Assembly (NCBI GenBank): GCA_964016885.1
Contig: OZ024741.1
Location: 261,640,001 to 261,704,000, forward strand
Direction of reading: 5' to 3'
DNA: 64,000 nucleotides
DNA from: Eledone cirrhosa
Taxonomy: Eukaryota
In this document: positions 29,200 through 62,631 of the stretch, piece by piece
Numbering within the stretch: position 1 is the first letter of the stretch
Layout: each line of letters opens with the position of its first letter
Notes under the pieces: generated by a model
Databases searched by the model: none
The model's input: the letters and a program-made list of their open reading frames with translations, nothing else
Told to the model about the DNA's origin: nothing
Position numbers and translations under genes: made by a program

Positions 29200-32100
29200 C
29201 GCTTGTCAGATTCAGGTGTGTGACGCTCGGATATGGCATTTCAAGCCTGCTAGAGACTTGCACTCCTTCACACACTGACGACAACTATGGATCTCCCTTG
29301 CTTGAGGTCCTGCATCAGGTTGGCCGTGAACCCTCACAACACCATGGAGATCATAGTTCACTGGTTCTCTTTGTACATGGCTGCGACTGTGGCTCCTGAG
29401 ACCAGATTTTCTCAAGCAAATTTTTCCACACTCAGGGCACTTCAATTCAATGGAGACACCGATCGTTTCGAGAGATACACCAGGGCATTGATTACGCACA
29501 TCCCGTTTGATCTTCTCGTGCTCTATGCGTTTGTCCTCAAAATTATGGACCCCATCATTCACTATTCCATGCCAAGTTTCTCTTTCAAGAACTTCTATCT
29601 CCCAGTCAGCCGTCATCAAACCATTTCTTTTTCAATGAGTCCTTTACACAATCCTTGAATCGGAGCCTTGGCTTGTGAAGTGGTCTCTTACCCTCACAAA
29701 ACTCGCCATACAAGAATTGTTTTGGGATTCGATCATCCTCCATTCTGCAGAGGTGTCCGGTCCATACTTTCAATGCTCCGACACTCACTTCTCTCAAGTA
29801 CCTCAACATCACACACATGATGAACATAAATACAAGGCAAACAAAGTTGGTGCAGGTATATCACCCTGCTTGACACCATTTTCAACCGAGATTGGCTCAG
29901 ATAGTTTACCTCCAACATTCACCCATGCCTGCATGTCATCGTGGAAGAGTTTCAGAATGTTCACAAACTTTTCGGGACAGCCCAATCGCTCCAAAATAAC
30001 CCACAAAGCCTTCCGATTAACCGTGTCAAATACCTTGGTCAGATCGACAAAAACTTGATATAAGTCCATGCGCTGCTCACTGCATTTCTTCTGAAGTTGT
30101 TTGGCCTAGAAGATCATGTCAACACTGCCTCTGCCATTCCTAAAGCCACATTGCTGTTGAGGTACTTCCTGAGTCCCAATGTGCTGTATAAATCTGTCTA
30201 ACAAAATCCTGCACAAGATCTTCCCAGCCACAGATAGCAGTGCGATACCTCTGTAGTTGCCACAGTCATCTTTGGCTCCTTTTCCTTTGTAAAGTACCAC
30301 CATCAATGCATCTTTCCAGTCCTGTGGTACATCTTATTCATTCCAAACTTTCACAAAAAGATCAGTGAGGCGGTTTAAGAAGTTATCACCAGCATACTTG
30401 AAAATCTCGGCACTCAGTCCATCCACACCAGGCGATCTGCCACTGTTTAATTTGGCAAGGCCTTCGCCACCTCATCAAATGAAGGAGGATCAGCCATTGC
30501 CATCAATTTCTGATGGTCTGTTGAGAAGCTCATCAAAGTGGTCACGCCACCTGATCAGGATTTCCTTCGGATCTCTGAGCAATTCCTTGCCATCCCTGGA
30601 GCGAAGTGGTGATATTTGTGAACCGGTCGGACCATACACCTCCCTGATCAGACTATATAAAAGTTTTGTATCATGTCTATCTGAGGCCTTCTGGATTTCA
30701 TCAGCCTTTTGGTTCCACCAGGCATCCTGCATGGCTTTCAATCGATGTTGCACACGTGCCTTGATCTGCCTGAAGGTCCGGTCACTCTTGTCAGAATGTG
30801 TCTCACACAACAATGATGTCAGCACTTTTTGTTTCTCTTCAAGCAAGGTCTGGATCACTGCATCATTTTCATCGAACCAGTCTTTATGCTTTCTATTGAT
30901 ATGACTCAAACCTCCAGCACTAACATCATAGATGGTTTTCTTCAATGATTCCTATGTTTTTTCACATTCCATGGTCTCAAGGGACTTCGACAGCTCAGCT
31001 CTGACTTTCTCTGTTTTCAGACGAGCCATGTTTAGTTGTTTTGGAAGTGCAACCTTCTTCCCCCTTACTCTGGGCTTCACAACAAATTGAAATTTGGCGC
31101 TCACCAGACGATGGTTAGTCCAACATTCTGCGCCTCGCAATACACGAACCAATGTGATATCTCTGATATCACGTTTCCTCGTTAAAGCCAAGTCAATAAG
31201 GTGCCACTTCTTGGAACCTGGATGCGTTCACGTTGTCTTATATTTGTCTTTCTGCTGAAAGAGCGTGTTCCCAACAACAAGATACATCTCAATGCACATC
31301 TGCAACAGAAGTAGGCCATTGTTATTGAATTTACCTAATTCATGCTTGCCCATCACACTCCAAGCTTCCCAGTCATTACCAACACGTGCATTAAAATCAC
31401 CAGAGTCACAAAGCGGTTTTGAATCAGAGGGACTCTCATGGACATTATCCAATCATTGAATCCACAAGGAAGATTTTCCAGCTTTGAGACGATTCCATTC
31501 CTGACAGCAAATGCGACCCCTGCCTCTCTCCTACACCCCTCTGCTCCACCAACCCAATAGAAGGTATATCCTCCCCTCTGTTCTGTGAATTGACCCTCAT
31601 CTGCCAATCTCGTTTCTGAAAGAGCAACGATGTCCATGCTACAGCGATTGAGTTCCCTCGACACCAAAGCAGATCTTCTTTCAGGGCAAGTTTCACTGGA
31701 CTGGGACTCAAGTAAAGTTATACATTCCAGCATACAATATTCAGAGGTTTGAACCACTTTGCTGTTGCAGGATGACAACCGCGCCCAAACTGCGGTTTCC
31801 TTGGGACACCTGCCGGACCAGACCCCTTCACAATAAGTTCCAGAGCCCTTACTGCCATTGACTTCAAGGTTATCATCTGCCATCATAGAGTTTGGCGCAC
31901 TTTTAGGCTACGGTCAACCACACGAACCTGTAACAGATCCTGAACAAGCGATGCCTGTGCTTTGAAGGTTTTTTAAGTGGCGAAAGGCCTTGCACGCGAC
32001 CAATCCCACTCTCTAAGCATCGAAAACACTACCCGAAAAGGAGAACTGGTCAACATCATCGGATGTTTCCGAAGCCGCAGGTTTTTTTCAGAGTTTCTCT

Positions 32101-32413: not shown

Positions 32414-34089
32414 GATAAATCTACCAAAATTATACGGTAGTGTCCAATCCGTATGAAGAACTCAATGTAATCCAAATTTCATGAAAAGAGATGTATTAAA
32501 ACAATTTTTTTCGATGAAAATCACAGGAATACAGAGTCAAGATAAATTAATAAAAACAATGAATAAAAACAAAGAAACAGTTCCTTATATTAAAAAGTTC
32601 ATCATTTTACGATCGTTTCTAGGATATATATGTGTGTTGGTATGTATATCATATAGATCTATGTAGAAATTTTACAAACTATCAGAGGGAATATACATAC
32701 CTACACGTTTATTGAAAAAAACCAACAAGGATTTAATATAATAGGTCTGTTTGTGAACAGGTTTTGAATTGACCAATAGAAAAGTAGTAAGTGGTCAAGT
32801 TGATAGAATAGTAGTAGTAGAAATTTAATTTAGGGGTAGAGGAATGCAGACTTCAGTTTTGAATGGAAAGAACACTTTGAATGAAAAGATTACTTTGGGC
32901 ATGAAAAGAGGTGAAGCCGGTGGAAAGTACACGAAAATTTGATATTATTAAAGAATAATACTAATGTTAAAATCGAAGGAGAATAAAATGTTAGGGTAAA
33001 TGTGTTAGTGAGAAATACCAATCTTATTTAAAACATAAGGAATTTAGATCTATAACAAGAAATTAAATTAATTTAATTGATAGGTATACTTATAGGGATA
33101 AATTTATATCATATAGATGTGATAAATAAGAGTTAGATGTTATTAAAGAATGTTGTTTAAAACGAAGGAAAAAATGTTTGGGGGATAAATGTGTTAGTGA
33201 GAAATAACAAACTTATATAGACTACAAGGAATTTAGATTCATAACAGGAAATTAAAATAGTTTATATGTATACTTATAGGTATTAATTTTATGAAAAGAG
33301 AGCTGTAAAAGGGAAATAAAATTATGAAGTTCTCGGTAGTAAAATACTAATTATATGTTAACTAAAGTAAAATTAAAAATTAAAAAAACTAATTATAATT
33401 TGTAAAATATAAGTGTAAGGTGTATATTAATTAGGTTTATAATATTTGAAAGTTCTTCTAATTCTATGATTGCACGATATAATTAATTCTTGTCGCTTAT
33501 TTAATAGGATAGCCTTAGATTTCATTATTTCAAAAAGTTCCTGGGAACATAACCTACACTGATATCTGTTATTTAGATAAGGGGTGGCCCTTTTGAGCAC
33601 ACTCCAGGTCAGGTTATAATCGATATTTTTTTTTCTATAATTATTAATTATTTCAGCCAAGGATGTTGTATTAGCTAATGCGGCATTTTAAAAATTATGT
33701 TTGTGGGTATTAAATCTTACTTTAAATTGGTTAGAAGTAGCTCCTATATATGAATAAGTTGAGTCCTTAGTGTTAATTTTACATTTATATACTATGTTAT
33801 TAATAAGACAATTTCCTTTTAATGGGCAATTTGCTTTGTTTCTACAGTTACAACCATTCGTGAATATTATATCAGGGGAGTTAGTCAAATTTGGTGTGGA
33901 ATTTACGCGACTTGTTATATGTGAAGGAGATGGTGGTTTGTTGCGGTTTATTTTAGTATTATGGTTAGTTTGATGTGTTGGTGGTATATTCATGATTTTT
34001 TTTACATTTATATGCATTGTAGGCACGTATATTTTGTTGTATATTTTTGCTAGTGGAGTAGGAAAATTTGACCGTTGATCTTTTTAAAA
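32412..34089 (-). mobile_element. Penelope-like element 1, left inverted arm (GIY-YIG plus 3' region)
   Basis: Reverse complement of ~34831-36660; CNCRNKANCPLKGNCL..IVYKC..YIGATSNQFKVRF. Confidence 0.9.
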
Positions 34090-36874
<2,785 letters not shown>

Positions 36875-40453: not shown

Positions 40454-41130
40454 ACTAACGGATAGATGGAATTGTTGGTATGATGGTTTCAATGCAAAGA
40501 ATAATACCAGGATTGTGTTGTTACAATGTTTATTTTATTATAACAATATTCAATTTGAATATTGACTGATAAAATCTATAACATGAAATATTCGTACACT
40601 AAGTTGGTGGTTCTTCGAGCCACGTCAGTACAAGTATCACAGAATACGATATAATATAATTTGTATTGTATCTGAAAGATACAATATGACAGACAGAAAT
40701 GGTGCATGTAAAAATGCAAGCAATGTGAACGTGTGTGCGTATTAGTATACTTTCTTGTCTTAGCAGTAGTAGTAATCAATCAGCCATGCGGGAATGGCAT
40801 GTGAGAAATTAGTGGACAGACTGGTTTTTCGTGAAGGGAGTTTGACAGCGTAAGTGAATACCTCCTCTCTTATCTGTAGTACCACATTTTCTGCTGGGCA
40901 TAAACAAATCCTTGTATTTACAACTTCGTTGAAGTTAGAAGGATGGATATATCATGTGACGTCTGGTTAGGGTTGGTCTGCCGGGTGTAAACAACCCTTG
41001 TATCTATAACGGTTGAAGTTAGAAGGGTGGATATATCATCTGACCTCTTTTCTGCCGTGCGTAAACAACCGTCATCTGACCTGTGGTTAGCAGCTCCCAA
41101 GGGGTTGATCTGCCGGGCGCAAACAACCAA

Positions 41131-42871
41131 CTCAGCGCGACAGCTGCTGAGTTGGTGGCACCCTTAATGTACCGAATATCAGTAGTGTACTGAGAAATGA
41201 AGTCCAGATGTCGGACCTCCCTGGCTGAGTGGCGATCAGGCTTGGCGTTGAACGCGTACACTAGTGGTTTGTGGTTGGTGTATATGGAGAACACACAACC
41301 TTCTAGCATGTGTCGAAAATTCTTGACAGCAAGGTGTGCTGCCAATAATTCACGACTGAATGTATTGTACTTAGTTTCGGCGGGTTTTAATCGCTTAGAG
41401 AAAAAATATACAGGTCGCCAAATATCGCCAGAGAGTTGTTGAAGCACACCTCCAACTCCGAAATCGGATGCATCAGTCAATAAACACATTGGGGTGTCAG
41501 GTTTGGGTAACTCAGCATTGTAGCCTCGGACAACATTTTCTTCAACTCAGCGAAAGCGGTACATTCTTTTTCGCTGAGATTGATGTTCGCGTTTTTGGTT
41601 GTACGCTGCCGCAGCAAATCTGTGAGTGGTTGGGCTGTCTCTGCACAGTGGGGTATAAATCTTCTGTAGAAGTTCACCAGGCCAAGAAATTCTCGCAGTT
41701 TGCGGAGAGATGTGGGCTGTGGATAATCAATGATGGATTAGACCTTCTCCTTAAGTGGACGAATGCCATCTTTATCAATGATGTGTCCCAGAAAATGAAG
41801 GGACGCAACTCCGAACTCACATTTGCTGGGGTTGATAACAATTCCGTATTCACACAAACGTTCGAATAGCAGGTGCAGGTATTTCTCATGTTCTCCTTCG
41901 GAGCCGCTCGCCACCAGTAAGTCGTCGATGTATGCGTATACAAAAGGTAGACCTCTGGTGACTGTATCAATGAACCATTGGAATGTCTGCGCTGCATTGC
42001 GCAAACCGAAAGGCATACGCAGGAATTCGAACATTCCAAAGGGTGTTGTGACGGCGGTCTTCGGAATATCAGCGGGCTCCACAGGTATCTGATTGTAAGC
42101 TCGCACAAGATCGATCATCGAAAATATGCAAGCTCCGTGCAGCGAGCTAGAGAAGTCCTGTATATGAGGCACTGGATAAGAGTCAGGCACGGTGCAGTTG
42201 TTCAGTGCACGGTAGTCGCCACAGATTCGCCAGTCGTTCGACAATTTCTTGGGTACACAGTGTATGGTGAGGACCAGTTGCTGCTGGAAGGATGTATGAT
42301 GCCGAGATCCAGCATGTGTTGAAATTCTTGTCTGACGGACTTCAGACGGTCTGGTGGTAGCCTTCTAGGTCATGCAGCGACAGGTGGGCCGTGTGTTTTT
42401 ATGTGGCAGGTGACGTCATGTTTTACAGGCCAGGCGTTGAATACTGGTCGAGCTATATCTGGGTATTTGTTGATTATATAGCTGTGCCGGGTTGTTGTTG
42501 CCGATCGTGAAATAACAGTTTTTCATGTCCACTGTCAGCGAGAAGTGCTGAAGAAAGTCAGCTCCTAAAATAGAGGTCGGCAGCTTAGCCACAACGAAAA
42601 CCCACTGGAAAGTGCGGCGTAGTTCTAAATTCAGTGTCATGGACTGCTCTCCGTAGGTTGGAATAGGTCAATGATTCACCGCTTGGAGCCAGGCTGGTGT
42701 TTCTTTCCTTTTTCCAGGAACGCAGGAAACCGGGATGATGCTGACTTCAGCCCCGGTGTCGACCAAGAAACGCGGCGTGCCTGTGACGCGATCCTGAATG
42801 AAAAACAGGCGACTTTGATTATGAAGGCCAGAATCGTCCGCCGCATTCAGTTTCTGGCTGTGTCGTTTCCC
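41131..42871 (-). pseudogene. pol: Gypsy pol (PR-RT-RNase H), fragmented, no integrase
   Basis: [55 protein letters not shown]. Confidence 0.9.
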
Positions 42872-43544
42872 TGATTCGACATCGACACAAATGAACAGGG
42901 ATGGCTGCACTTGCGCGCCCGCCTTCCGAATTTTTGGTGGTACCAACACATTTCTGGTGAATCACGGGATGCGCTCGGACTTCTAGGGCGACTACCGAAT
43001 CGTCGAGTTTGACTGTTAGACTGACGCGTGACAGGGTTACCCAGTGACAAGGCCTGAATTTGTTGCGACAAGGCCTGTATCTGTGTTGCTTGCTGTGCCA
43101 GTAACTGGTGTAGATCGGGCATCTCTGTGGCACTGTAGGGTTGAAGGAAAGAATTGGTGGAAGGCACGGCTGGCGTCACATTCGCCGTAGGAGTTGCGTC
43201 GCCTTTATATCTCCTATTTCCTCCGATATGAGGAGCTGGTGCAAGCGCTTCTGCTGCGACTCCGACGTCCTCTTAATCAACGTTGTTTTAAATGTGTCAT
43301 ATGACACAGAGCCGGGTGGTGTTAAAATGAGGTCTCGAACCTCATTCATAATCTCCGGAGACATCGAACCAATGACATGTGTGAGACAAGATGCCTCGCT
43401 AACGATCCGGTTCGATGCGAACTGCGCTTCGATGTGCGCGAACCACAGTGTTGGATCGTGCACCCAGAATGGTGGTATCCTTAATGTAAACGCCGCCCGG
43501 ACTGCCATTTCTGCCGTAGATGAATCGTTGTGTGCTAGGGACAT
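42847..43544 (-). pseudogene. gag: Gypsy gag (frameshifted)
   Basis: ORFs 43176-43544 and 42847-43179; CWYHQKFGRRARKCSHPC. Confidence 0.85.
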
Positions 43545-43580
43545 CGTTTGTTGTGGATGATCAGAAGGTTGTTTGTCTGT

Positions 43581-43598
43581 ATCACGTCGGGGTCACCA
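43581..43598 (-). promoter_or_regulatory. Primer binding site for tRNA-Trp
   Basis: TGGTGACCCCGACGTGAT, 2 nt from the 5' LTR end; complementary to the metazoan tRNA-Trp 3' end (recalled sequence). Confidence 0.85.
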
Positions 43599-46175
43599 GT
43601 TGTAACGGTTAGATGGAATTATTGGTATGAAGGTTTCAATGCAAAGAATAATACCAGGATTGTGTTGTTACAATGTTTATTTTATTATAACAATATTCAA
43701 TTTGAATATTGAATCTGAAAGATACAATATGACAGGCAGAAATGGTGCGTGTAAAAATGCAAGCAGTGTGAACTTACTATGTGTGCATGCGTATTAGTAT
43801 ACTTTCTTGTCTTAGCAGTAGTTGTATTCAATCAGCCATGCGGGAATGGCATGTGAGAAATTAGTGGACAGACTGGTTTTTCGTGAAGGGAGTTTGACAA
43901 CATAAGTGAATACCTCCTCACTTATCTGTAGTACCACTTTTTCTGCTGGGCATAAAGAAATCCTTGTATTTACAACTTCGTTGAAGTTAGAAGGATGGAT
44001 ATATCATCTGACCTGTGGTTAGTATCTCCCAAGGGGTTGGTCTGCCGGGTGTAAACAACCCTTGTATTTATAACGGTTGAAGTTAGAATGATGGATATAT
44101 CATCTGACCTCTTTTCTGTCGGGTGTAAACAACCGTCATCTGACATGTGGTTAGCATCTCCCAAGGGGCTGGTCTGCCGGGTGTAAACAACCAACCACAG
44201 CTTGTCCCAGAGGCGGGAAAGCTCATCAGATTCGGTTTCGAATCTTCGCCGGTTTCAATGCAGGAGTATTCCGTTATACTCCAGCCACTAAGCCATGCGC
44301 CTTCACACATTGTATGTGTGTCTATATAAAGATATATTAATAACATTTATATATCTGTATCGATTCTAGAGATGATATTCCTCTATCAATTTCAAGAGTT
44401 GTAAGAAATGAATTAACTGACAATAAAAATGTTAAATAATGATGCGACAGAGATCCTTGGAACAGTAGGAGATATATGATGAATGCATTGTTGGTGATTA
44501 ATGGAGTTCTCACATCAGTATTTAGAGGAGTTGGGGTAGCGGGAGGAAACTTTGAACTGGAGTTACTGGCGGTTTTTCTTATTGAGAATTTCTTCCCTTC
44601 TGATGAGAATGGCGAGTGATGATGTCGGTGATAGGGAGAGGGTGCAGACACCAATTATACGATTGGGTGTAGAATATGTAGACTAGACAGTATAGAGATT
44701 GAGAGAGTGTAGTTCTGAGAGGAATAGGATGTGTGGTTTGTGGATGGTGGTGGTGGTGGTGGTGGTGGTGATAGTGTGTGTGTGTATGTAGGAAGTCTAG
44801 GTTGAATTTGAGTTCACATGTTAGGAAAGATGGAGGATTGACCATTGAATTTTGTTTCCGTTGGGGGCTACCTGATGTGTGATAACAGAAATGTTTATTT
44901 TTTTATGTGTATTGACATAGATTCAATCCTAGTAATAAGGTATGTTAAGTCTCTTTACGTGCATACTTTAATTTCACACTGTTCTATATTCGGTTTGTGA
45001 AGGAAACTATAATTTCCTCTAAGTAATCAAAACATAAATGAACTACCGTTTCTTCCGTGTAGAACACGCACTCCTTTTTGACCAGAAAGATATCTGGAAA
45101 AGCCTAGTTTTGTGTATAGCGCTTTGAGAAACCGGAAAAAATCTGTCGCTGGACATTCAAGCTAGAGAGCATTAGTGAATGCAAAATATATATATGTACA
45201 ATGTATTATTTTCCAATAAAAAATAATTAGCCAGTTAATTAAATTTTTGACAGCTGTGACCCTAACAGATTAGTGATTCATGTTCACACCTTGTATAATG
45301 ATCCTTTTGATCATTTGGTAATTAAAGATGATAAAATATAATAATTATACAAACAGTTCAATTATGTTTACAATATTATAAATAGCAATGCAAATCCTAG
45401 CCTGTCATTCACAAAGTGATGATGTGTAGAGTTAGAAACTTGTACACTGCAAAAGAAAAGCTATGTTACATTGCCTATGCAGAAACACGGAATAACCGTG
45501 CCACCGGCACAGAGTAGAGCTTATGAGAGGGGGGTTGAGCCGATACTTTGTTCCGAGGCCCAAGAGCTAAGAAGGCCCCACAGAAACCATGCAACATCCA
45601 TTTTGAGAAAGTATTTTACCTGTTTCGGGCCCCAAAGGGATCTTGTATCGCCTTGCAAAATTTCTCATGGCGACCCTGGCAGAGAGTCCAGTTAGAGACA
45701 GGCGTCTACTAAATGGTTTTCTGAGGGGGTTAGCCAAACAAAATAAAGCAGAACGTTGGAAGTCAGCAAAATTCCTTGAACGTGAACAGAGTGTTGTTGA
45801 TTAGACAATACAAGCTAGAGAGTAGGGTATTGCTGTATCAAACCACAGATCTACGGCTCAAAACAACGCTAGTAGCCTCTGAAAGCTGGTCTTACGGCTT
45901 ACTGCGCAGACACCAACTGTCCATACACACACGCAACCACATTTCACAGCGACCTCCAGGAGATTATGAAGATAAATTATTAGAATTTCAACGTATACAG
46001 TATCAGTAAACCTTTATTCAAAAGGTACGATCGAAGTTAAAAGTGCACGGTGTTGGTTGATTCTTGATACAATATTTTGTCTTCTGCTGGCTTTTTTCTT
46101 GGGAAAATAATTGAAAAAGCTGGAAAAATATAGTTATGGTGTATACTGCGCAGACTCAAAACAAATAGGGAAGAA

Positions 46176-50700: not shown

Positions 50701-50977
50701 ATAATATAACCTACATAGTATTATTAGGTTTGTTAAAATTGTATCCTTACGACCTTCCAATAATTGTGTAGGGGAAATATGAATAAATGTAAACCCGTTC
50801 AATGTATAGATATTAATACTCATGATTTGTCAATATGTATAATTATATCTTTATTTATACAGAATTTACAGAAGTTATATCATTACATTAATTTTTACTC
50901 ACATAGATATGAATTGAAAGATAAATCCAAATTTTATAACTCATATTTTCTACATCTGAAAATGAACATTGACAAAA

Positions 50978-51770
50978 GTGGTATATGAATCGTGGGGACA
51001 CCAGTGGTATATGAATGGTGGGGATACCAGTGGTATATTAATGGTGGGGACACCAGTGGTATATTAATGGTGGGGATACCAGTGGTATATTAATGGTGGG
51101 GATACCAGTGGTATATTAATGGTGGGGACACCAGTGGTATATGAATGGTGGGGACACCAGTGGTATATTAATGGTGGGGACACCAGTGGTAAATTAATGG
51201 TGGGTACACCAGTGGTATATTAAAGGTGGGGATACCAGTGGTATATTAATGGTGGGGACACCAGTGGTATATTAATGGTGGGGATACCAGTGGTATATTA
51301 ATGGTGGGGACACCAGTGGTAAATTAATGGTGGGGACACCAGTGGTATATTAATGGTGGGGACACCAGTGGTATATTAATGGTGGGGACACCAGTGGTAT
51401 ATTAATGGTGGGGACACCAGTGGGAAATTAATGGTGGGGACACCAGTGGTATATTAATGGTGGGGACACCAGTGGTATATTAATGGTGGGGGCACCAGTG
51501 GTATATTAATGGTGGGGATACCAGTGGTATATTAATGGTGGGGACACCAGTGGTATATTAATGGTGGGGACACCAGTGGTATATTAATGGTGGGGACACC
51601 AGTGGTATATGAAGGGTGAGGACAACAGTGGTATATTAATGGTGGGGACACCACTGGTATATTAATGGTGGGGACACCACTGGTATATTAATGGTGGGGA
51701 CACCAGTGGTATATTAATGGTGAGGATACCAGTGGTATATTAATAGTGGAGACACCAGTGGTATATGACA
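50978..51770. repeat. 26-bp minisatellite GGTGGGGACACCAGTGGTATATTAAT, ~30 copies
   Basis: Directly visible tandem array. Confidence 0.97.
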
Positions 51771-52428
51771 ATGACGTCAGTGGTTTATGACAATGACATT
51801 TGAGGTTTATTGATGGTAGGGACTCTTGTGTGATATATACGCAGGGGAAACTACCAGGATATGAATGGTGAGATCATATGAATACATTTTTCAAGTTAAT
51901 ATATGGTAAGGAAGGAAATGAGATCTTTATTTGAAGATAAGGAATAACTATAGTCTTATCATCCAACTATTTGACCTCTTCACTATTTTACAGTCTACTC
52001 CAACCTGCAGGTTGTAGGTCCATGTAATTTGCATAAGTAAAAAAATAATAAAATGGAGAAATAAAACCTTCATAGAGAGAATTAATAATGGCTTTGTTTA
52101 GAGTTTTATTTTGGTTTCAGTTAAGGCTCATGTATGAACATGTTCCAACCTATTAGAACCAATTAGCATAGTATAATCAACTGAAGCCTGTAGATCAAAT
52201 GATAATTACGAATAATATTTGGTCATTATAATTTGCATCATTTGTTATATTGAATCATGTCTATAGTTGTCGTCTTGTCTTTGCCTACATAAATCAGCTT
52301 TTCTCCTAGTCTAAGAACATTTAAATTAAGAAGTCTTCCTTACAATCTTCAGTACATTTACTGTTAGTGTATGTGTAAGATGAGCAGTTACAATAGTAGA
52401 TTGTAAAATTAATATTCGCTGCCATGTA

Positions 52429-54710: not shown

Positions 54711-55107
54711 CTGTTCATGAAAGAATGAGAGAGTGACATATGAACAAGCTGATAAATAATTAGGTAGTTAAATAAATGTGGTGGGTCTTCTTGCGCTTAG
54801 TTTTCCGCTTTGTGAAGTTACTCTCAATATATAGAATAATAAATAAGAGAGTATTGAAGTTTGCTTGAAGCATTGTGGAACAATAAGTAAATATTTATAA
54901 GTCGTTTGGAAGCCTCGACAATGCAAATGGGTAAATCTCCGGGTAACAGGGTCCGGTGGAGGAGAGAGAGATATGTAAGTGGGTGTACGTTGAGATGCGT
55001 GGTGTGTATAAGATGTGTGAGATGTGTAGAATGAAGGGAAGAGTGAAAGGGTAAAAATAATAATAACAACACAGGAGAGAGAGTTACCTTGGGAGAGATT
55101 TAATAGT

Positions 55108-55144
55108 CCCTATATATTTCGGATTCACATCCATCAACTGGGGG
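55108..55144 (-). ncRNA. Non-canonical hammerhead-like motif in pLTR (second copy 58408-58443)
   Basis: ccc-CAGUUGAU-GGAU(GUGA)AUCC-GAAA-UAUA-UA-ggg followed by AUUAAA; the core deviates from CUGANGA. Confidence 0.4.
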
Positions 55145-55545
55145 TTTTTTTCCGGGGTGTCGGACAATTCGGAACGCGTCTTTCGCTGTTTGTTGATTTG
55201 AATATCTGAGGTATTCGGTCGAGCGCGCGTGCGCGTGAAATGGGGTCGGTCGTACAGAAGTCAACGGCCGAATGAGGGAGTGGGATGGCGCTAGCTGTCT
55301 GTCAGTCCATTCTCTGCCTGCTTGTTAAATGTTACTGTGTGTGTGTGTGCGTGTGTTGTTGTCTCGCTTGAGTGTGTGTGTGTGTGTGTGCGTGTGTAGT
55401 TGCCTTGTTCATCTGTATTGGCAGTGTAGTATGTTCGTATGGTGGAATGCTACTGTGTGTGTGTGTGTGCGTGTGTGTGTGTAGTTGTCTCGTTTGCGTG
55501 TGTGTGTGTGTGCGTGTGTTGTGTGTTGTTGCATCGCTTGTTAAC

Positions 55546-58173
55546 TTAAACCAGCCATTTCATTTCGCTTCTCTCTAATCGGTTGTTTATTTGCGGTTGT
55601 AGTCGTTTGATAAGAAGCCCTTCCTTAATACGTAACGTGCCGACGTTTCTTTCAGTCGCTAGAATTGTGACAATGGGCCTTCCGTCTTTGTTTCCGCATT
55701 TGTCTATGTGTTTCCGGAAAGACGAGGCCCTGGTTTTAATGTGTTCCTTGATCCGGATGTGCAAAGGTCGGATTGTGCTACCTATGTAGTATTGGTTGCA
55801 CCTGTCACATTCTATCTTATACACGACGTATGTGCGTAGGCAACAGTTAGCATGGCGTATCGGGCAGTCTCTGAGGGAGCATGCGTCAGTAGACTTTTCG
55901 GTTTTCCTGGAGAGGAATCTTCGCAGGAAGGGGCCCGAGTGGGCCAGGTGGATGTCGAGGCCCTCTCTCCGTATAGCCTTGCGGATAGCGTTGGTGGTTT
56001 TATCGCCCAGGTGTGGTATTTTAAGGAAGCACTTGCCTTGGGTGCTTCTCTGTCTCTTGCGCCTGGTGTCTCCTATTCTGTCTGTGATCGAGGTAGGGTA
56101 CCCGTTCGTCTCCAGCACCTCGAGGAATCGCTTGGTATGAGTGACACTACTCGCGGAATCGCTGCATCTGTCTTTGATTCGCGCGATCTCGTTCGTGATG
56201 TATCCTCTTTTGGCACTGTTAGAGAGGGCGGACTTGTATTGAACGAATAAGTCCCTGCAGGCTGCCTTTCTGTAGAAGTTGCAGTGGATCCCTCCTTGTT
56301 CCGTGATGTTGATTCGGAAGTCGAGGAGGGCAAGTGACCCGTCTTCGTTGGGGTGTTCAACACTGAAGTCAATGTTCTCGTCCGTGTTGTTGAACGTCTC
56401 ATAGATTCTGTTCGCCGTGTCTTGGGAAGATGTGAGGATGAGGATATCGTCCACGTATCTTGAGAAAAAGGCTACGGCGTTGGGGTGGCAGGCGTTGAGA
56501 GCCTTTCGTTCGAGGTTGTCCATGTAGGAGATCGCTAGTACACCTGATAGACTTGATCCCATGGGCAATCCCGAGGTTTGTTGGTATATTTGGTCAAGGA
56601 ATCCGAAGTAGGTGTTGTCGACGACGATGGATAGGAGTTGGTGGATGTCGGTGGTGGTGAGCCCGAAGCAGTGTAGGTCGGGGGATTGGACGCGTTCCAT
56701 TAGTATATTGACGGCCGGGAGAGCCGGGACCGAGGTGTAGAGAGCGACTACATCAAGGCTGAAGGCATATCTGTTATTCCTTCTGGTGTCGGGATACATT
56801 TGATGCAGGCGCTTCAATACCTCCTCGGTGCTGTTAACGTGTCCCGGCAAGGTGTCTAAGATGGGTTTGAGTATTCTGGCTAGGAGCCATGAAATTTTGT
56901 AGAGTGGTCCTCCACGCTCGATACGATGGGCCTGATTTTCAGGTCGGGTCCCTGTTTGTGTGTTTTCACGAGGTGGTAGAAGGCGGGTAGTCTGCTGTTC
57001 CTCGTGAGGAGGTTGTATCTCAGCTTCTTCGGGAGCTTCCGCAGGTCGCAGATGTTGGTCCAGGCGGAGTTGATGTGTTCTTCTATCTGCGCGGGAGTGA
57101 TTCCCGTGACCCTGGAGTAGAAGTTGTCATCGTCAATGTGTTGGAGGGCCAGGGTGTTGTAGGCCTCTCTGCTGATGACGCAGAATTCTTTTCCTTTGTC
57201 GGAGGGGAGATAGATGAGGTTCTTCGATTTTAGGTTGGAGAGAGTGGTGAGTTGAGATTTGGTGAGGTTATGTGTTGTGCGTGTGTGTGTGTGTGTGTTT
57301 GTGAAGTATATCCGAGATGGAGTGTTTAAGCCTGATGAGTTTGGTGTCGAGTTCGTGGTTGGTGGGTGGGGGGTGGAGTGGGTTGTCGGGGTGGTAAGTG
57401 GGGAACTTGGAGTGGGTTGTGTCGGCGCTGTTATTATCTGTGGCGCTGTTGATAGCGGTCACCCATTTAAGTTGGTAAGCGGCTCGACAAAAGTTGGCCT
57501 CGATGTTGAGTTTGAGTCTGTCGTCGAGACGTTGTGTGACGATGAACTTAGGTCCGAGGTGTAGGAGTTTCAGCTCGTCGCTCGTGAGAGTGCCGGTTAG
57601 GTCGGTGACCAGGTGCGTCGCATCGTTGAGGTATGGCTCGGTGTTGGTGGTAGCGGCGGTGGCGGTTGTTACGTTGTTGTTTTCCACGTGGTTCTGGTCC
57701 GTCTGTTCGTTAGTGTCGATGTTCTCGTTGTGGCGTTTCAACAAGATCCACTCATATTTTCGCTTGCGTCGTTTTTTCTCGTATTGGACTCTGGAGTGGT
57801 AGCACTGGTCGATTGCTTTAGTGATATTTAGGAGCAAGTATCCGGGTGCTATTGGCAGTCGATGTGTCCGCTCTGAGAGTGTCCGCTTATGGACGTGTAA
57901 TTGGCGGTTGAGATGTCTCAGGATTTGTTTAATACACGTGCGATGTATGCGATTAGTGGTGTTTTGGAAGGCTGGTGTACGTAGGCTTACTGGTAAGCGG
58001 ATGTTCATGATGGTGTTGGGGATGACATCGTTTTTTAGGCAGCGTTTCAGGAAAATAATTTGGCAGCCAGCGTTGGCCCATTTCTCCGACAGTCTAAACA
58101 GTTCCCTTACGGATGCAAACAATTCCTGGCTCAGGTGTAAGGATAAGAGAGTATTGAAGTTTGCTTGAAGCAT
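55546..58173 (-). pseudogene. PLE RT + GIY-YIG ORF (~875 codons) with two frameshifts
   Basis: FLKRC..IP, LHLGPKF, SDKG, KTHK..RPIVS, SLDVVALYTSVP, GLPMGS, RYVDD, VVYKIEC..YIGST.R..R..EH. Confidence 0.92.
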
Positions 58174-58685
58174 TGTGGAACAATAAGTAAATATTTATAA
58201 GTCGTTTGGAAGCCTCGACAATGCAAATGGGTAAATCTCCGGGTAACAGGGTCCGGTGGAGGAGAGAGAGATATGTAAGTGAGTGTACGTTGAGATGCGT
58301 GGTGTGTATAAGATGTGTGAGATGTGTAGAATGAAGGGAAGAGTGAAAGGGTAAAAATAATAATAACAACACAGGAGAGAGAGTTACCTTGGGAGAGATT
58401 TAATAGTCCCTATATATTTCGGATTCACATCCATCAACTGGGGTTTTTTTCCGGGGTGGGGGAAAAGGTTGTCTGTCGGACAATTCGGAACGCGTCTTTC
58501 GCTGTTTGTTGATTTGAATATCTGAGGTATTCGGTCGAGCGCGCGTGCGCGTGAAATGGGGTCGGTCGTACAGAAGTCAACGGCCGAATGAGGGAGTGGG
58601 ATGGCGCTAGCTGTCTTTCAGTCCATTCTTTGCCTGCTTATTAAATGTTACTGTGAGTGTGTGTGCGTGTGTTGTTGTCTCGCTT

Positions 58686-58753
<68 letters not shown>

Positions 58754-59801
58754 GTAGTTGCCTTGTTCATCTGTATTGGCAGTGTAGTATGTTCGTATGG
58801 TGGAATGCTACTGTGTGTGTGTGTGCGTGTGTGTGTGTAGTTGTCTCGTTTGCTTGTGTGTGTGTGTGCGTGTGTTGTGTGTTGTTGCATCGCTTGTTAA
58901 CTTAAACCAGCCATTTCATTTCGCTTCTCTCTAATCGGTTTTTATTTGCGGTTGTAGTCGTTTGATAAGAAGCCCCTCCTTAATACGTAACGTGCCGACG
59001 TTTCTTTCAGTCGCTAGAATTGTGACAATGGGCCTTCCGTCTTTGTTTCCGCATTTGTCTATGTGTTTCCGGAAAGACGAGGCCCTGGTTTTAATGTGTT
59101 CCTTGATCCGGATGTGCAAAGGTCGAATTGTGCTACCTATGTAGTATTGGTTGCACCTGTCACATTCTATCTTATACACGACGTATGTGCGTAGGCAACA
59201 GTTAGCATGGCGTATCGGGCAGTCTCTGAGGGAGCATGCGTCAGTAGACTTTTCGGTTTTCCTGGAGAGGCATCTTCGCAGGGAGGGGCCCGAGTGGGCC
59301 AGGTGGATGTCGAGGCCCTCCCTCCGTATAGCCTTGCGGATAGCGTTGATGGTTTTATCGCCCAGGTGTGGTATTTTAAGGAAGCACTTGCCTTGGGTGC
59401 TTCTCTGTCTCTTGCGTCCGGTGTCTCCTATTCTGTCTGTGATCGAGGTAGGGTACCCGTTCGTCTCCAGCACCTCGAGGAATCGCTTGGTATGAGTGAC
59501 ACTACTCGCGAGATCGCTGCATCTGTCTTTGATTCGCGCGATCTCGTTCGTGATGTATCCTCTTTTGACACTGTTAGGGAGGGCGGACTTGTAGTGAACG
59601 AATAGGTCCCTGCAGGCTACCTTTCTGTAGAAGTTGCAGTGGATCCGTCCTTGTTCCGTGATGTTGATTCGGAACTCGAGGAGGGCAAGTGAGAATAATA
59701 AATGTCTACATTTTTGCCAACACTTTATCAATACATATGTAGATAAATGTAAGACTTATGTTATGTGTAGTTCTATATTAATGTTAATATTTTTCACTTA
59801 C

Positions 59802-60761: not shown

Positions 60762-60838
<77 letters not shown>

Positions 60839-60884
60839 AAATAAAATAAATAAGTCAAATGTTTAAAATTTGGCTTCGTTTATT

Positions 60885-60939
60885 ACTGCTATATATATTT
60901 CGGTGACAGCCATCTTTGGCTGTGATCTCTTCAGGCAGT
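60885..60939 (-). ncRNA. Type I hammerhead ribozyme (mirror copy)
   Basis: Same motif on the - strand: actgc-CTGAAGA...GAAA-tatata-TA-gcagt-AATAAA. Confidence 0.85.
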
Positions 60940-61166
60940 CCGAATTAGTGCGGTAGAGACGAGTACACATGTTGAGGTGTATAACTTTGTCAATACTCTG
61001 ATATGCCTAGTTCCTGGCTGGGTTGTTATTTCACTGAGGAACTGGAATCATATGATTCCAGTTCCTCAGTGAAATAACAACCCAACCAGGAACTGGGCAT
61101 ATCAGAGTATTGACAAAGTTAAACACCTCAACAACATGTGTACTCGTCTCTACCACACTAATTCGG

Positions 61167-61221
61167 ACTGCCTGAAGAGGTCACAGCCAAAGATGGCTGT
61201 CATCGAAATATATATAGCAGT
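61167..61221 (+). ncRNA. Type I hammerhead ribozyme, canonical core
   Basis: ACUGC-CUGAAGA-stem II (ACAGCCA/UGGCUGU)-GAAA-UAUAUA-UA-GCAGU, then AAUAAA at 61222. Confidence 0.85.
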
Positions 61222-61367
61222 AATAAACGAAGCCAAATTTTAAACATTTGACTTATTTATTTTATTTTATTTTACATTACTCCGGAGTAACCAAACCAAC
61301 CTGCGCACTTCGTCGAGTGTTCCAATCTGCATACTGAGGTGTGGTATACAACCAACATATACTCAAA

Positions 61368-61405
<38 letters not shown>

Positions 61406-61457
61406 AAAAGAAATTAAAAATGCAACTGGAGTCTTATTAAGAATATTTATTTGTTTC

Positions 61458-61493
61458 CTTTACCAGTTTCACAATTCATATGCTTTTCAAAAG
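61458..61493 (-). ncRNA. Minimal hammerhead, U3-A8 variant
   Basis: cuu-UUGAAAA-GCA..UGU-GAAA-CUGG-UA-aag. Confidence 0.6.
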
Positions 61494-61565
61494 TAGAATT
61501 AAGATGGAGGGTTTCTGGTTTTTCTCAGGTGCGAGAAAAACCACAAACCCTCTATTTCAATTCTA

Positions 61566-61602
61566 CTTTTGAAAAACATATGAACTGTGAAACCGGTAAA
61601 AG
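61566..61602 (+). ncRNA. Minimal hammerhead, U3-A8 variant
   Basis: uu-UUGAAAA-ACA..UGU-GAAA-CCGG-UA-aa; AAUAAA at 61608. Confidence 0.6.
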
Positions 61603-61723
61603 AAACAAATAAATATTCTTAAAAAGACTCCAGTTGCATTTTCAATTTCTTTTCCTTAAACTTTCACTCGTTTTTTTTCATTAAAAAAAACCCTCATTTT
61701 CTTATATATATATAAACAAATAG

Positions 61724-61782
<59 letters not shown>

Positions 61783-61792
<10 letters not shown>

Positions 61793-62280
61793 AAATAGTA
61801 GATAGGAAAAAAATACAGTAGAAAATGGTGGAGGGATTTTTCAGTATAATATTAAAACATTTATTTATAAAATCGGGATTTCTGCCCTTAATAGTGTACC
61901 GGTTTCAGCTTTATATGCTTTTTCAATGACGGAAGTGTATAGTGCAGTTAAATTGCATATTTATATGAATAATAATAAAATGGAGAAAAAGTTTTAGTTT
62001 TTACATACATATTTAGAGAGGAAAGTTCATATTTTTGTCCGAAGTTTTCTTTCGTTCTCTGTTAGTGTTGACCAACAGAGGTGGTAGCAGTCATCACCTC
62101 ATATAAATATGCAATTTAACTGCACTATACACTTCCGTTGTCGAAAAAGCATTCAAGTCGAAATCGGTACACGATTAAGTGCAGAAATCCTGACTTTATA
62201 AATGTTTTGATATTATACTGAAAAAAACCCTCAGCAATTTCTACTGTATTTTTCTCCTTTTTACTATTTGTTTATATATA
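61783..62280. mobile_element. Inverted-repeat cassette C (~185-bp arms, 130-bp spacer)
   Basis: 61783-61968 is the reverse complement of 62099-62280, more diverged than A. Confidence 0.88.
61893..61931 (-). ncRNA. Minimal hammerhead, U3-A8 variant (mirror at 62136-62173 +)
   Basis: UUGAAAA-AGC..GCU-GAAA-CCGG-UA on -; + copy cguug-UCGAAAA-AGC..GUC-GAAA-UCGG-UA-cacg. Confidence 0.55.
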
Positions 62281-62435
62281 TCAACTCATGTGTCACTTTG
62301 CTACATTCCATATACATATATTAGAGCTTTGCATGGGTGCTTGGTACCTCGTGGATTCATACTCATGTATTTATCGGGGTTGTTCCATTATCCTGTTCAT
62401 CCATAGCTAACATTAAACAGGTATTCTTTGATGCA

Positions 62436-62631
62436 GGGCTAGAAGGACAGTAGTAATAGTGGCAGAATTTGTTGAGGCTGTAAAGGTTAGAAGGACAGTA
62501 GTAGTAATGGCAAAATTTTATGGGGCTGGTAAGGGCTAGAAGGACAGTAGTAGTAATGGCAGAATTTGTTGGGGGCTGGTAAGGGCTAGAAGGATCGTGG
62601 TAGTAATGGCAGGATATATTGGGGCTGGTAA
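62436..62631. repeat. ~49-bp tandem repeat x4
   Basis: GGGCTAGAAGGACAGTAGTAGTAATGGCAGAATTT..GGGGCTGGTAA units. Confidence 0.85.

Follow-up and report, generated by a model that had tools for sequence, protein, structure and literature searches.

Stacked inverted hammerhead cassettes in the Eledone cirrhosa genome as probable short insertions of EN-encoding PLEs

In a stretch of 64,000 nucleotides from Eledone cirrhosa (contig OZ024741.1; hereafter the window), we found three inverted-arm cassettes, C1, C2, and C3, which are separated by (TA)n and occupy positions 60829–62309 (Table 1). Each cassette is, with good probability, a very short insertion of an endonuclease (EN)-encoding Penelope-like element (PLE) that consists of two head-to-head hammerhead-bearing ends and one tail, was likely built at landing, and is likely not mobile as a unit. 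This reading builds on the membership of the arms in dispersed families, their linkage to EN/RT sequence, the variation in both spacing and junctions, the rule of one tail per pair, and the presence of (TA)n at the 3' ends. The cassettes are real and known in kind, i.e., they are further cases of the inverted-stump pattern of PLEs.

Table 1. Coordinates of the cassettes and their features in the window (60793–62309).
Feature	Position	Strand
(TA)20 tract on the outer side of the tailless C1 arm	60793–60833	
C1, both arms; tail to 61370	60829–61277	
C1 left arm, without tail; pLTR end of a PLE that is Hydra-type by motif; stops at the proximal 3' site	60829–61051	-
C1 left hammerhead, canonical CUGAAGA..GAAA..AUA; predicted cut after 60890; AATAAA 60879–60884	60885–60939	-
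C1 junction, native 8-bp palindrome of the parent (TCATATGA), the C1-family 5' hot spot	61048–61055	
C1 right arm, pLTR end	61052–61277	+
C1 right hammerhead, canonical core from 61172; predicted cut after A61216; AATAAA 61222–61227	61167–61221	+
C1 tail, about 93 nt, family feature	61278–61370	+
(TA)16 separating C1 from C2	61371–61402	
C2, both arms; tail to 61702	61401–61658	
C2 left arm, tailless pLTR of a PLE that is Neptune-type by motif	61401–61526	-
C2 left hammerhead, U3-A8 core from 61490; predicted cut after 61461; AATAAA 61446–61451		-
C2 right arm, starts at the C2-family 5' hot spot (presumed transcription start)	61533–61658	+
C2 right hammerhead, U3-A8 core from 61569; predicted cut after 61598; AATAAA at 61608		+
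C2 tail, shortened by a small deletion; abuts the ORF start in long copies	61659–61702	+
(TA)6, 13-nt duplicate of the C3 outer end, (TA)31	61703–61789	
C3, both arms; tail to 62309	61790–62281	
C3 left arm, long and tailless; includes an apparent loop (61969–62098) of upstream parent sequence	61790–62098	-
C3 left hammerhead, U3-A8 core from 61926; predicted cut after 61897; AATAAA 61860–61865		-
C3 right arm, short; AATAAA absent; decayed hammerhead with the core TCGAAAA (from 62141) and a disrupted stem II	62099–62281	+
C3 tail	62282–62309	+

The original prediction of three inverted-arm cassettes next to (TA)n was borne out, with arm-to-arm identities of 95.7% for C1, 89.4% for C2, and 85.5–85.7% for C3. 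The short tail that was said to end each of them is indeed present, on a single side in C1, C2, and C3 alike, but it is family sequence and not unique. Other parts had to be revised: the predicted end at 62280 leaves the C3 tail outside, the apparent loop in C3 is the upstream continuation of its left arm, and the three sequences are not unrelated, as C2 and C3 share a core and GAAACCGGUA and the endonuclease pieces of their parents are 43–47% identical. In the tract between C2 and C3, the 13-nt copy of the C3 outer end between (TA)6 and (TA)31 looks as if a first priming had been aborted and then begun anew; comparable stutters at four further loci (L003, L018, L027, and L080) suggest that RT may itself add TA repeats.

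The entire three-cassette stack is present again, together with its flanks, 4.2 Mb away on the same contig (L002, 257460875–257464012). The two copies differ by 7 mismatches in about 3.1 kb, with TA length as the main difference, and represent either a recent segmental duplication or an assembly duplicate. This near-identical second copy is the one point in favor of a long-read fold-back or assembly artefact, an explanation to which we assign next to no probability: the arms of the cassettes differ by 4–15% including indels, the tails are one-sided, the spacer is asymmetric, and the same form occurs at dozens of loci on many contigs. The original prediction, which had argued against an artefact, was right in this respect.

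We scanned the whole window for hammerheads (CUGANGA..GAAA..UH with a paired stem I) and obtained three matches, i.e., both C1 arms and a weak one at 52.3 kb. The C1 hammerheads comprise a stem I of ACUGC/GCAGU, a long stem II, and the palindromic helix III AUAUAUAU, through which two C1 motifs are predicted to pair as a dimer. C2 and C3 lack CUGANGA; their core is UUGAAAA, with U3-A8 in place of C3-G8 throughout the families, a replacement published as covariation in Schistosoma PLEs (PMC4209133, accessible part). A type I core (C3-G8 or compensated U3-A8, GAAA, NUH) is present in five of the six arms, and AATAAA follows the motif in five of six. The exception in both cases is the right arm of C3, which has lost U4 and stem II. 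One hammerhead per arm, as originally claimed, is thus found in canonical form in both C1 arms and as the U3-A8 variant in C2 and C3, apart from the decayed C3 right arm, to which the claimed AAUAAA-like signal does not extend either. The predicted C1 cut agrees with the one proposed earlier, after A61216, and would have its minus-strand counterpart after 60890.

Genome-wide, the pattern TTGANAA-N11-16-GAAACCGGTH matched 19,642 times, as opposed to 17 times for a reversed control. An unpaired C3-A8 pattern yielded 150 matches against 14 for its control, and the 100 matches listed are mostly single mutants of the same families. Exact 33-mers of the motifs occur 1732 + 19 times for C1, 520 times for C2, and 25 times for C3, with 0 occurrences of the reversed controls. 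The two C1 numbers refer to C-type and T-type motifs, respectively, and an apparent systematic T/C difference between the C1 arms was accordingly rejected as an effect of ascertainment. Helices vary little within families; between families stem II differs, yet keeps 3 pairs. Among 45 Rfam matches at E ≤ 5, no hammerhead family was found, and the only matches were hairpin-driven miRNA matches below the gathering score. The U3-A8 hammerhead is present about 20,000 times in this genome in a form that canonical CUGANGA descriptors miss. Further U3-A8 families exist in the genome. In one of them (TTGATAA type), the basal pair of stem II is U-U; a locus of this type (L221) is an inverted pair enclosing a Neptune-type RT.

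All three arm types are dispersed repeats of the 3.0-Gb genome (the best 40 were scored of 144, 995, and 1001 candidates for C1, C2, and C3, respectively), and longer copies of the arms run upstream into PLE coding sequence (GIY-YIG, RT) on the same strand. A pLTR linked to coding sequence was found at L091 and L219 for C1, at L092, L093, and L217 for C2, and at L125 for C3 (EN only). GIY-YIG profile matches in family copies had E values between 2e-7 and 2e-3, and RT pieces, which fell below the Pfam RVT_1 threshold, were recognised by motif and tblastn. The C1 locus L091 repeats the design on a larger scale: its arms measure 705 nt, there is one tail, and the arms enclose a GIY-YIG ORF that carries a CxCX5C linker; at L219, RT and EN are located between the arms. 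The C2 locus L092 is full-length with C2 at both ends, in the order (TA)n, pLTR, tail, ORF, 3' UTR, tailless pLTR, and (TA)27, and its ORF comprises RT, a CX2CxxC linker, and GIY-YIG (E 2.4e-7). The C2 tail, or its last part, directly precedes the 5' end of the ORF in all 20 loci fetched of 40 listed, and the full ribozyme pLTR stands before the ORF in 12 of these 20; a pattern spanning the tail–ORF junction matched L092 alone in the genome. At L125, the sole locus that links C3 to an ORF, a GIY-YIG piece related to that of the C2 parent lies upstream of the arm. Contigs from sequencing runs of unrecorded type, which we did not count as evidence, cover the C1 family in X1 and X4, where upstream parent sequence forms a loose end, with no match from X5; for C3, none of the contigs listed spans the junction, and X4 had no match. 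These data bear out that the cassettes are PLE-derived, hammerhead-bearing, inverted, and (TA)n-associated.

Linker motifs (CxCX5C; CX2-5CxxC) were found in the translations of L091 and L092 and are decayed in L125. Judged by motif, the C1 parent would be Hydra-type, and the C2 and C3 parents Neptune-type (or Nematis). The Hydra clade is defined by the CxCX5C linker, a canonical hammerhead, and (TA)n targets (PMC8557442, accessible part). A Naiad-like label for the C1 parent was rejected, because its endonuclease is C-terminal and Naiads are without canonical hammerheads.

PLE ORFs elsewhere in the window have no DNA match to the cassettes. At 32558–36658, a larger element is built in the same way: its inverted arms of 1384 nt (96%) each contain an endonuclease piece of the CxCX5C type, and it ends in (TA)53; the scan found neither a canonical nor a U3-A8 hammerhead in it. 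A partial-tandem PLE of another family lies on the minus strand at 54843–59755, with an RT and GIY-YIG ORF at 55546–57126 and a 1554-nt direct repeat (94%) that contains only a degenerate hammerhead core. The window further comprises a 16-bp satellite of about 1700 units at 160–28605, whose interruptions of 31 and 88 bp recur at intervals near 9.8 kb and suggest a higher-order structure, decayed LINE-like frames at 29212–31907, and, at 40456–44195 (minus strand), frames between direct repeats of a presumably LTR retrotransposon-like kind, which from motifs we take to be gag, RT, and RNase H. A 26-bp minisatellite (30 units) is found at 50971–51872, and a 49-bp repeat (4 units) at 62416–62631.

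Head-to-head pairs were counted among the first 100 position-ordered matches listed per motif. On this basis there are at least 13 C1 pairs, spaced 67–4261 nt, and at least 23 pairs of the U3-A8 pattern, spaced 51–5696 nt, 15 of which are separated by 156 nt or less. Eight long pairs were fetched: five (L217–L221) enclose EN/RT sequence of the arm's type, L216 encloses an unrelated Hydra-type piece, and L214–L215 enclose no EN/RT. Junctions of short pairs are mostly dissimilar, with the exception of six C1 pairs that are centred on the parent's own TCATATGA at about -168 and that split 2 and 4 over both C1 subfamilies. Both subfamilies also occur among EN/RT-linked copies, and the two arms of one pair agree in subfamily, which argues that palindromes arose repeatedly from ORF-bearing sources.

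The original prediction had interpreted such cassettes as separate, ORF-less palindromic ribozyme elements whose hairpin RNA self-cleaves and which are retrotransposed as units. The high number of short palindromes, the one cluster with a common centre, and the integrity of the motifs at family level speak for this idea, which we nonetheless consider highly improbable. Comparing the arms genome-wide, as had been proposed, revealed palindromic and ORF-linked copies in the same families, with spacing that grades continuously from one kind into the other and junctions that vary. Arms continue into EN/RT, and the symmetric C1 palindromes derive from both subfamilies, as do the ORF-linked copies. 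Moreover, the proposal that either strand gives a self-cleavable hairpin RNA fails in structure predictions, where the ribozyme is buried in the whole-cassette hairpin: 78–100% of the ribozyme nucleotides are predicted to be paired outside the motif on either strand, and freeing the ribozyme fold from the antisense arm would cost an estimated 37–80 kcal/mol. There is also one ribozyme per strand, as opposed to the dimer that minimal hammerhead motifs are reported to need (PMC4209133, accessible part). Finally, A-to-I marks would be expected on a hairpin RNA template, and polarised A>G (ADAR-type) change was seen in 0 of 37 pair rows, which counts against mobilisation of a hairpin RNA.

Tails were scored in 35 pairs, i.e., the 37 rows below 1.2 kb minus L004 and L179, which were paired with a third, non-adjacent arm; L079 was scored as tailed. 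One tail was found in 32 pairs, none in 3, and two in 0. Given that 68 of 159 single arms are tailed, the binomial P for at least 32 one-tail pairs is about 1e-7. Among the eight long pairs, five have one tail, one has two (L216), one has none (L219), and one is unscored. The tail is carried by the short arm, with a tailless long arm, in C3 of the window, L014, L091, and L218, and by the long arm in L217 and L220, so that mere copying of the long arm does not account for the short arm.

This distribution bears on an alternative with the same PLE origin, in which a single strand primes itself or folds back where it meets a short palindrome, giving the second arm, and endonuclease resolution leaves the tail. 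Self-priming has been argued for (PMC3846280, Arkhipova et al. 2013, accessible part), the commonest C1 junction lies on the native 8-bp palindrome, L132 joins two CATATG sites, and the arms of a pair have a common subfamily and private variants. However, copying of a long arm cannot yield the four cases with a tailed short arm, most C2 junctions are without palindrome or microhomology, and single arms without a partner accumulate at the same 5' points as paired ones. We therefore rate fold-back as unlikely. General microhomology at junctions was likewise considered and discarded: joining at the 8-bp palindrome applies to many C1 cases, but overlaps in C2 are mostly 1 nt and not above the random value of 0.7.

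The 5' ends of the arms cluster in two of the families. For C2, 44 of 79 arms end at -73 to -63 from the cut site, and for C1, 38 of 80 arms end at -175 to -164; C3 5' ends are spread. Seven long C2 copies were examined for the motif, and in the six that matched, TATAAAA or CATAAAA begins 30–32 nt before the C2 hot spot; short C2 copies are without the TATA-like box, and the C1 hot spot has no TATA at -30. Motif and spacing in C2 thus suggest that its 5' ends are run-off at a Pol II start. No pile-up of 5' ends was found within 2 nt of the ribozyme cut in 78, 111, and 89 pieces, which is a weak test since the loci were chosen by ribozyme-containing queries.

(TA)4+ was present at the 3' ends of 74/80 C1, 62/79 C2, and 57/72 C3 arms, compared to 12/78, 14/78, and 13/71 (about 17%) at a control position 700 nt further on. 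A second of the three families lies within 3 kb at 8 of 175 loci, and stacking is a plausible outcome of the shared target. Target-site duplications are unreadable within (TA)n flanks. At L140, L143, and L112/L118, tailless arms form converging tail-to-tail pairs on one common TA tract, probably by a second insertion into the TA end of the first.

Assembly of the cassettes at landing could proceed as follows. The GIY-YIG enzyme would nick both strands of a (TA)n tract, and each 3'-OH would prime reverse transcription on uncleaved element RNA, one priming at the proximal start (arm end) and the other at the distal one (tail end). Synthesis of the cDNAs would halt early, often at the 5' end of the RNA (in C2 about 30 nt past the TATA-like box), and their ends would be joined bluntly, via filler, or via a short palindrome such as TCATATGA in C1. 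TA tracts remaining at the ends would serve as fresh targets, so that three families could pile up over time; from arm divergence, C3 was probably inserted first and C1 last. Two primings, one per strand and start site, would fit the results for an anole PLE: there, each of the two DNA strands is reported to be cleaved and elongated, reverse transcription begins at two internal positions that delimit the tail, and the substrate is RNA that has not been cleaved, so that ribozyme activity is dispensable (PMC11167929, accessible part). The ribozymes would then be parental passengers that in these cassettes would be sequestered or decayed. The run-off at a transcription start is an uncertain step, as C1 is without the box and Penelope of D. 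virilis has a TATA-less internal promoter (PMC2377424, accessible part), a precedent by which short copies might still be transcribed.

Some findings count against the landing model. The six C1 palindromes with a near-identical centre (-168) could in principle descend from copied palindromes, and three short pairs as well as L219 are tailless, while L216 has two tails. Regarding the genome's thousands of stump palindromes, the chances are about even that they are 'strong-stop' products, i.e., that they result from two-strand priming at two start sites, copying of uncleaved RNA as far as a capped 5' end that a TATA promoter within the pLTR would set, and head-to-head joining. If so, one mechanism would cover the inverted pLTR, the one-sided tail, and the fixed-length solo pLTRs, and the transcription start of each family would be predictable from DNA alone. 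The locus itself is ordinary repeat debris, and its value is that of a record of PLE integration. The one-tail rule, the tailed short arms, and the 5' hot spot 30 nt past a TATA-like box offer cheap tests of two-sided priming.

The cassettes can be compared with known systems as far as these are described in the accessible parts of the cited papers. An inverted, 5'-truncated pLTR with a one-sided tail and palindromic junctions is a typical PLE arrangement (PMC3846280; PMC8557442), inverted and tailed structures have been called mechanistically undefined (PMC8557442), and pairs of minimal hammerheads on opposite strands, separated by 100–700 bp, were described in 2014 as probable truncated PLEs (PMC4209133). 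The literature covered holds no description of a separate palindromic family or of such cassettes in cephalopods, most subscription papers and Repbase lying outside this coverage. A 2026 repeat annotation of Octopus vulgaris lists PLE families, and the words hammerhead, ribozyme, and palindrome are absent from its accessible part (PMC13282606).

Metazoan non-LTR retrozymes are, like the cassettes, short, non-coding, PLE-related, and equipped with a type I hammerhead (PMC7229834; bioRxiv 10.64898/2026.07.22.740005). In contrast, retrozymes are direct repeats in tandem, and their two ribozymes lie on the same strand and release a monomer or a circle, a feature not present in the cassettes, which are inverted with one ribozyme per strand. 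Neptune (or Nematis) PLEs with minimal hammerheads, among them the U3-A8 variant of Schistosoma Cercyon, share the U3-A8 core and the palindromic helix III (ACCGGT) with our families (PMC4209133), but stem II comprises 3 bp here instead of 7–8 bp, and the U3-A8 form is very abundant in Eledone. By motif, the C1 parent resembles the Hydra clade in its C-terminal GIY-YIG, CxCX5C linker, canonical hammerhead, and (TA)n insertion (PMC8557442), and the C2 parent resembles Neptune/Nematis PLEs in its CX2CxxC linker and C-terminal GIY-YIG (PMC4209133).

With Poseidon PAc of Anolis, our elements have in common that the tail (as seen in C2) is post-pLTR sequence at the 5' region of the ORF, that there are two preferred 3' ends and AT-rich targets, and that no sign of ends at the ribozyme cut is seen (PMC11167929). 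The predicted ORF of C2 begins about 25 nt past the tail, whereas that of PAc begins inside the ribozyme. The EN+ PLEs of Adineta, such as Pen2a, show the same head-to-head pLTRs, one-sided tail, some palindromic junctions, microsatellite targets, and heavy 5' truncation (PMC3846280; PMC8557442). Compared to these, no TSD is readable in (TA)n here, and the tails measure about 93, 44–57, and 28–40 nt, the usual length being 30–40. In the Eledone cassettes, furthermore, both copies are reduced to the pLTR alone, and three families are stacked.
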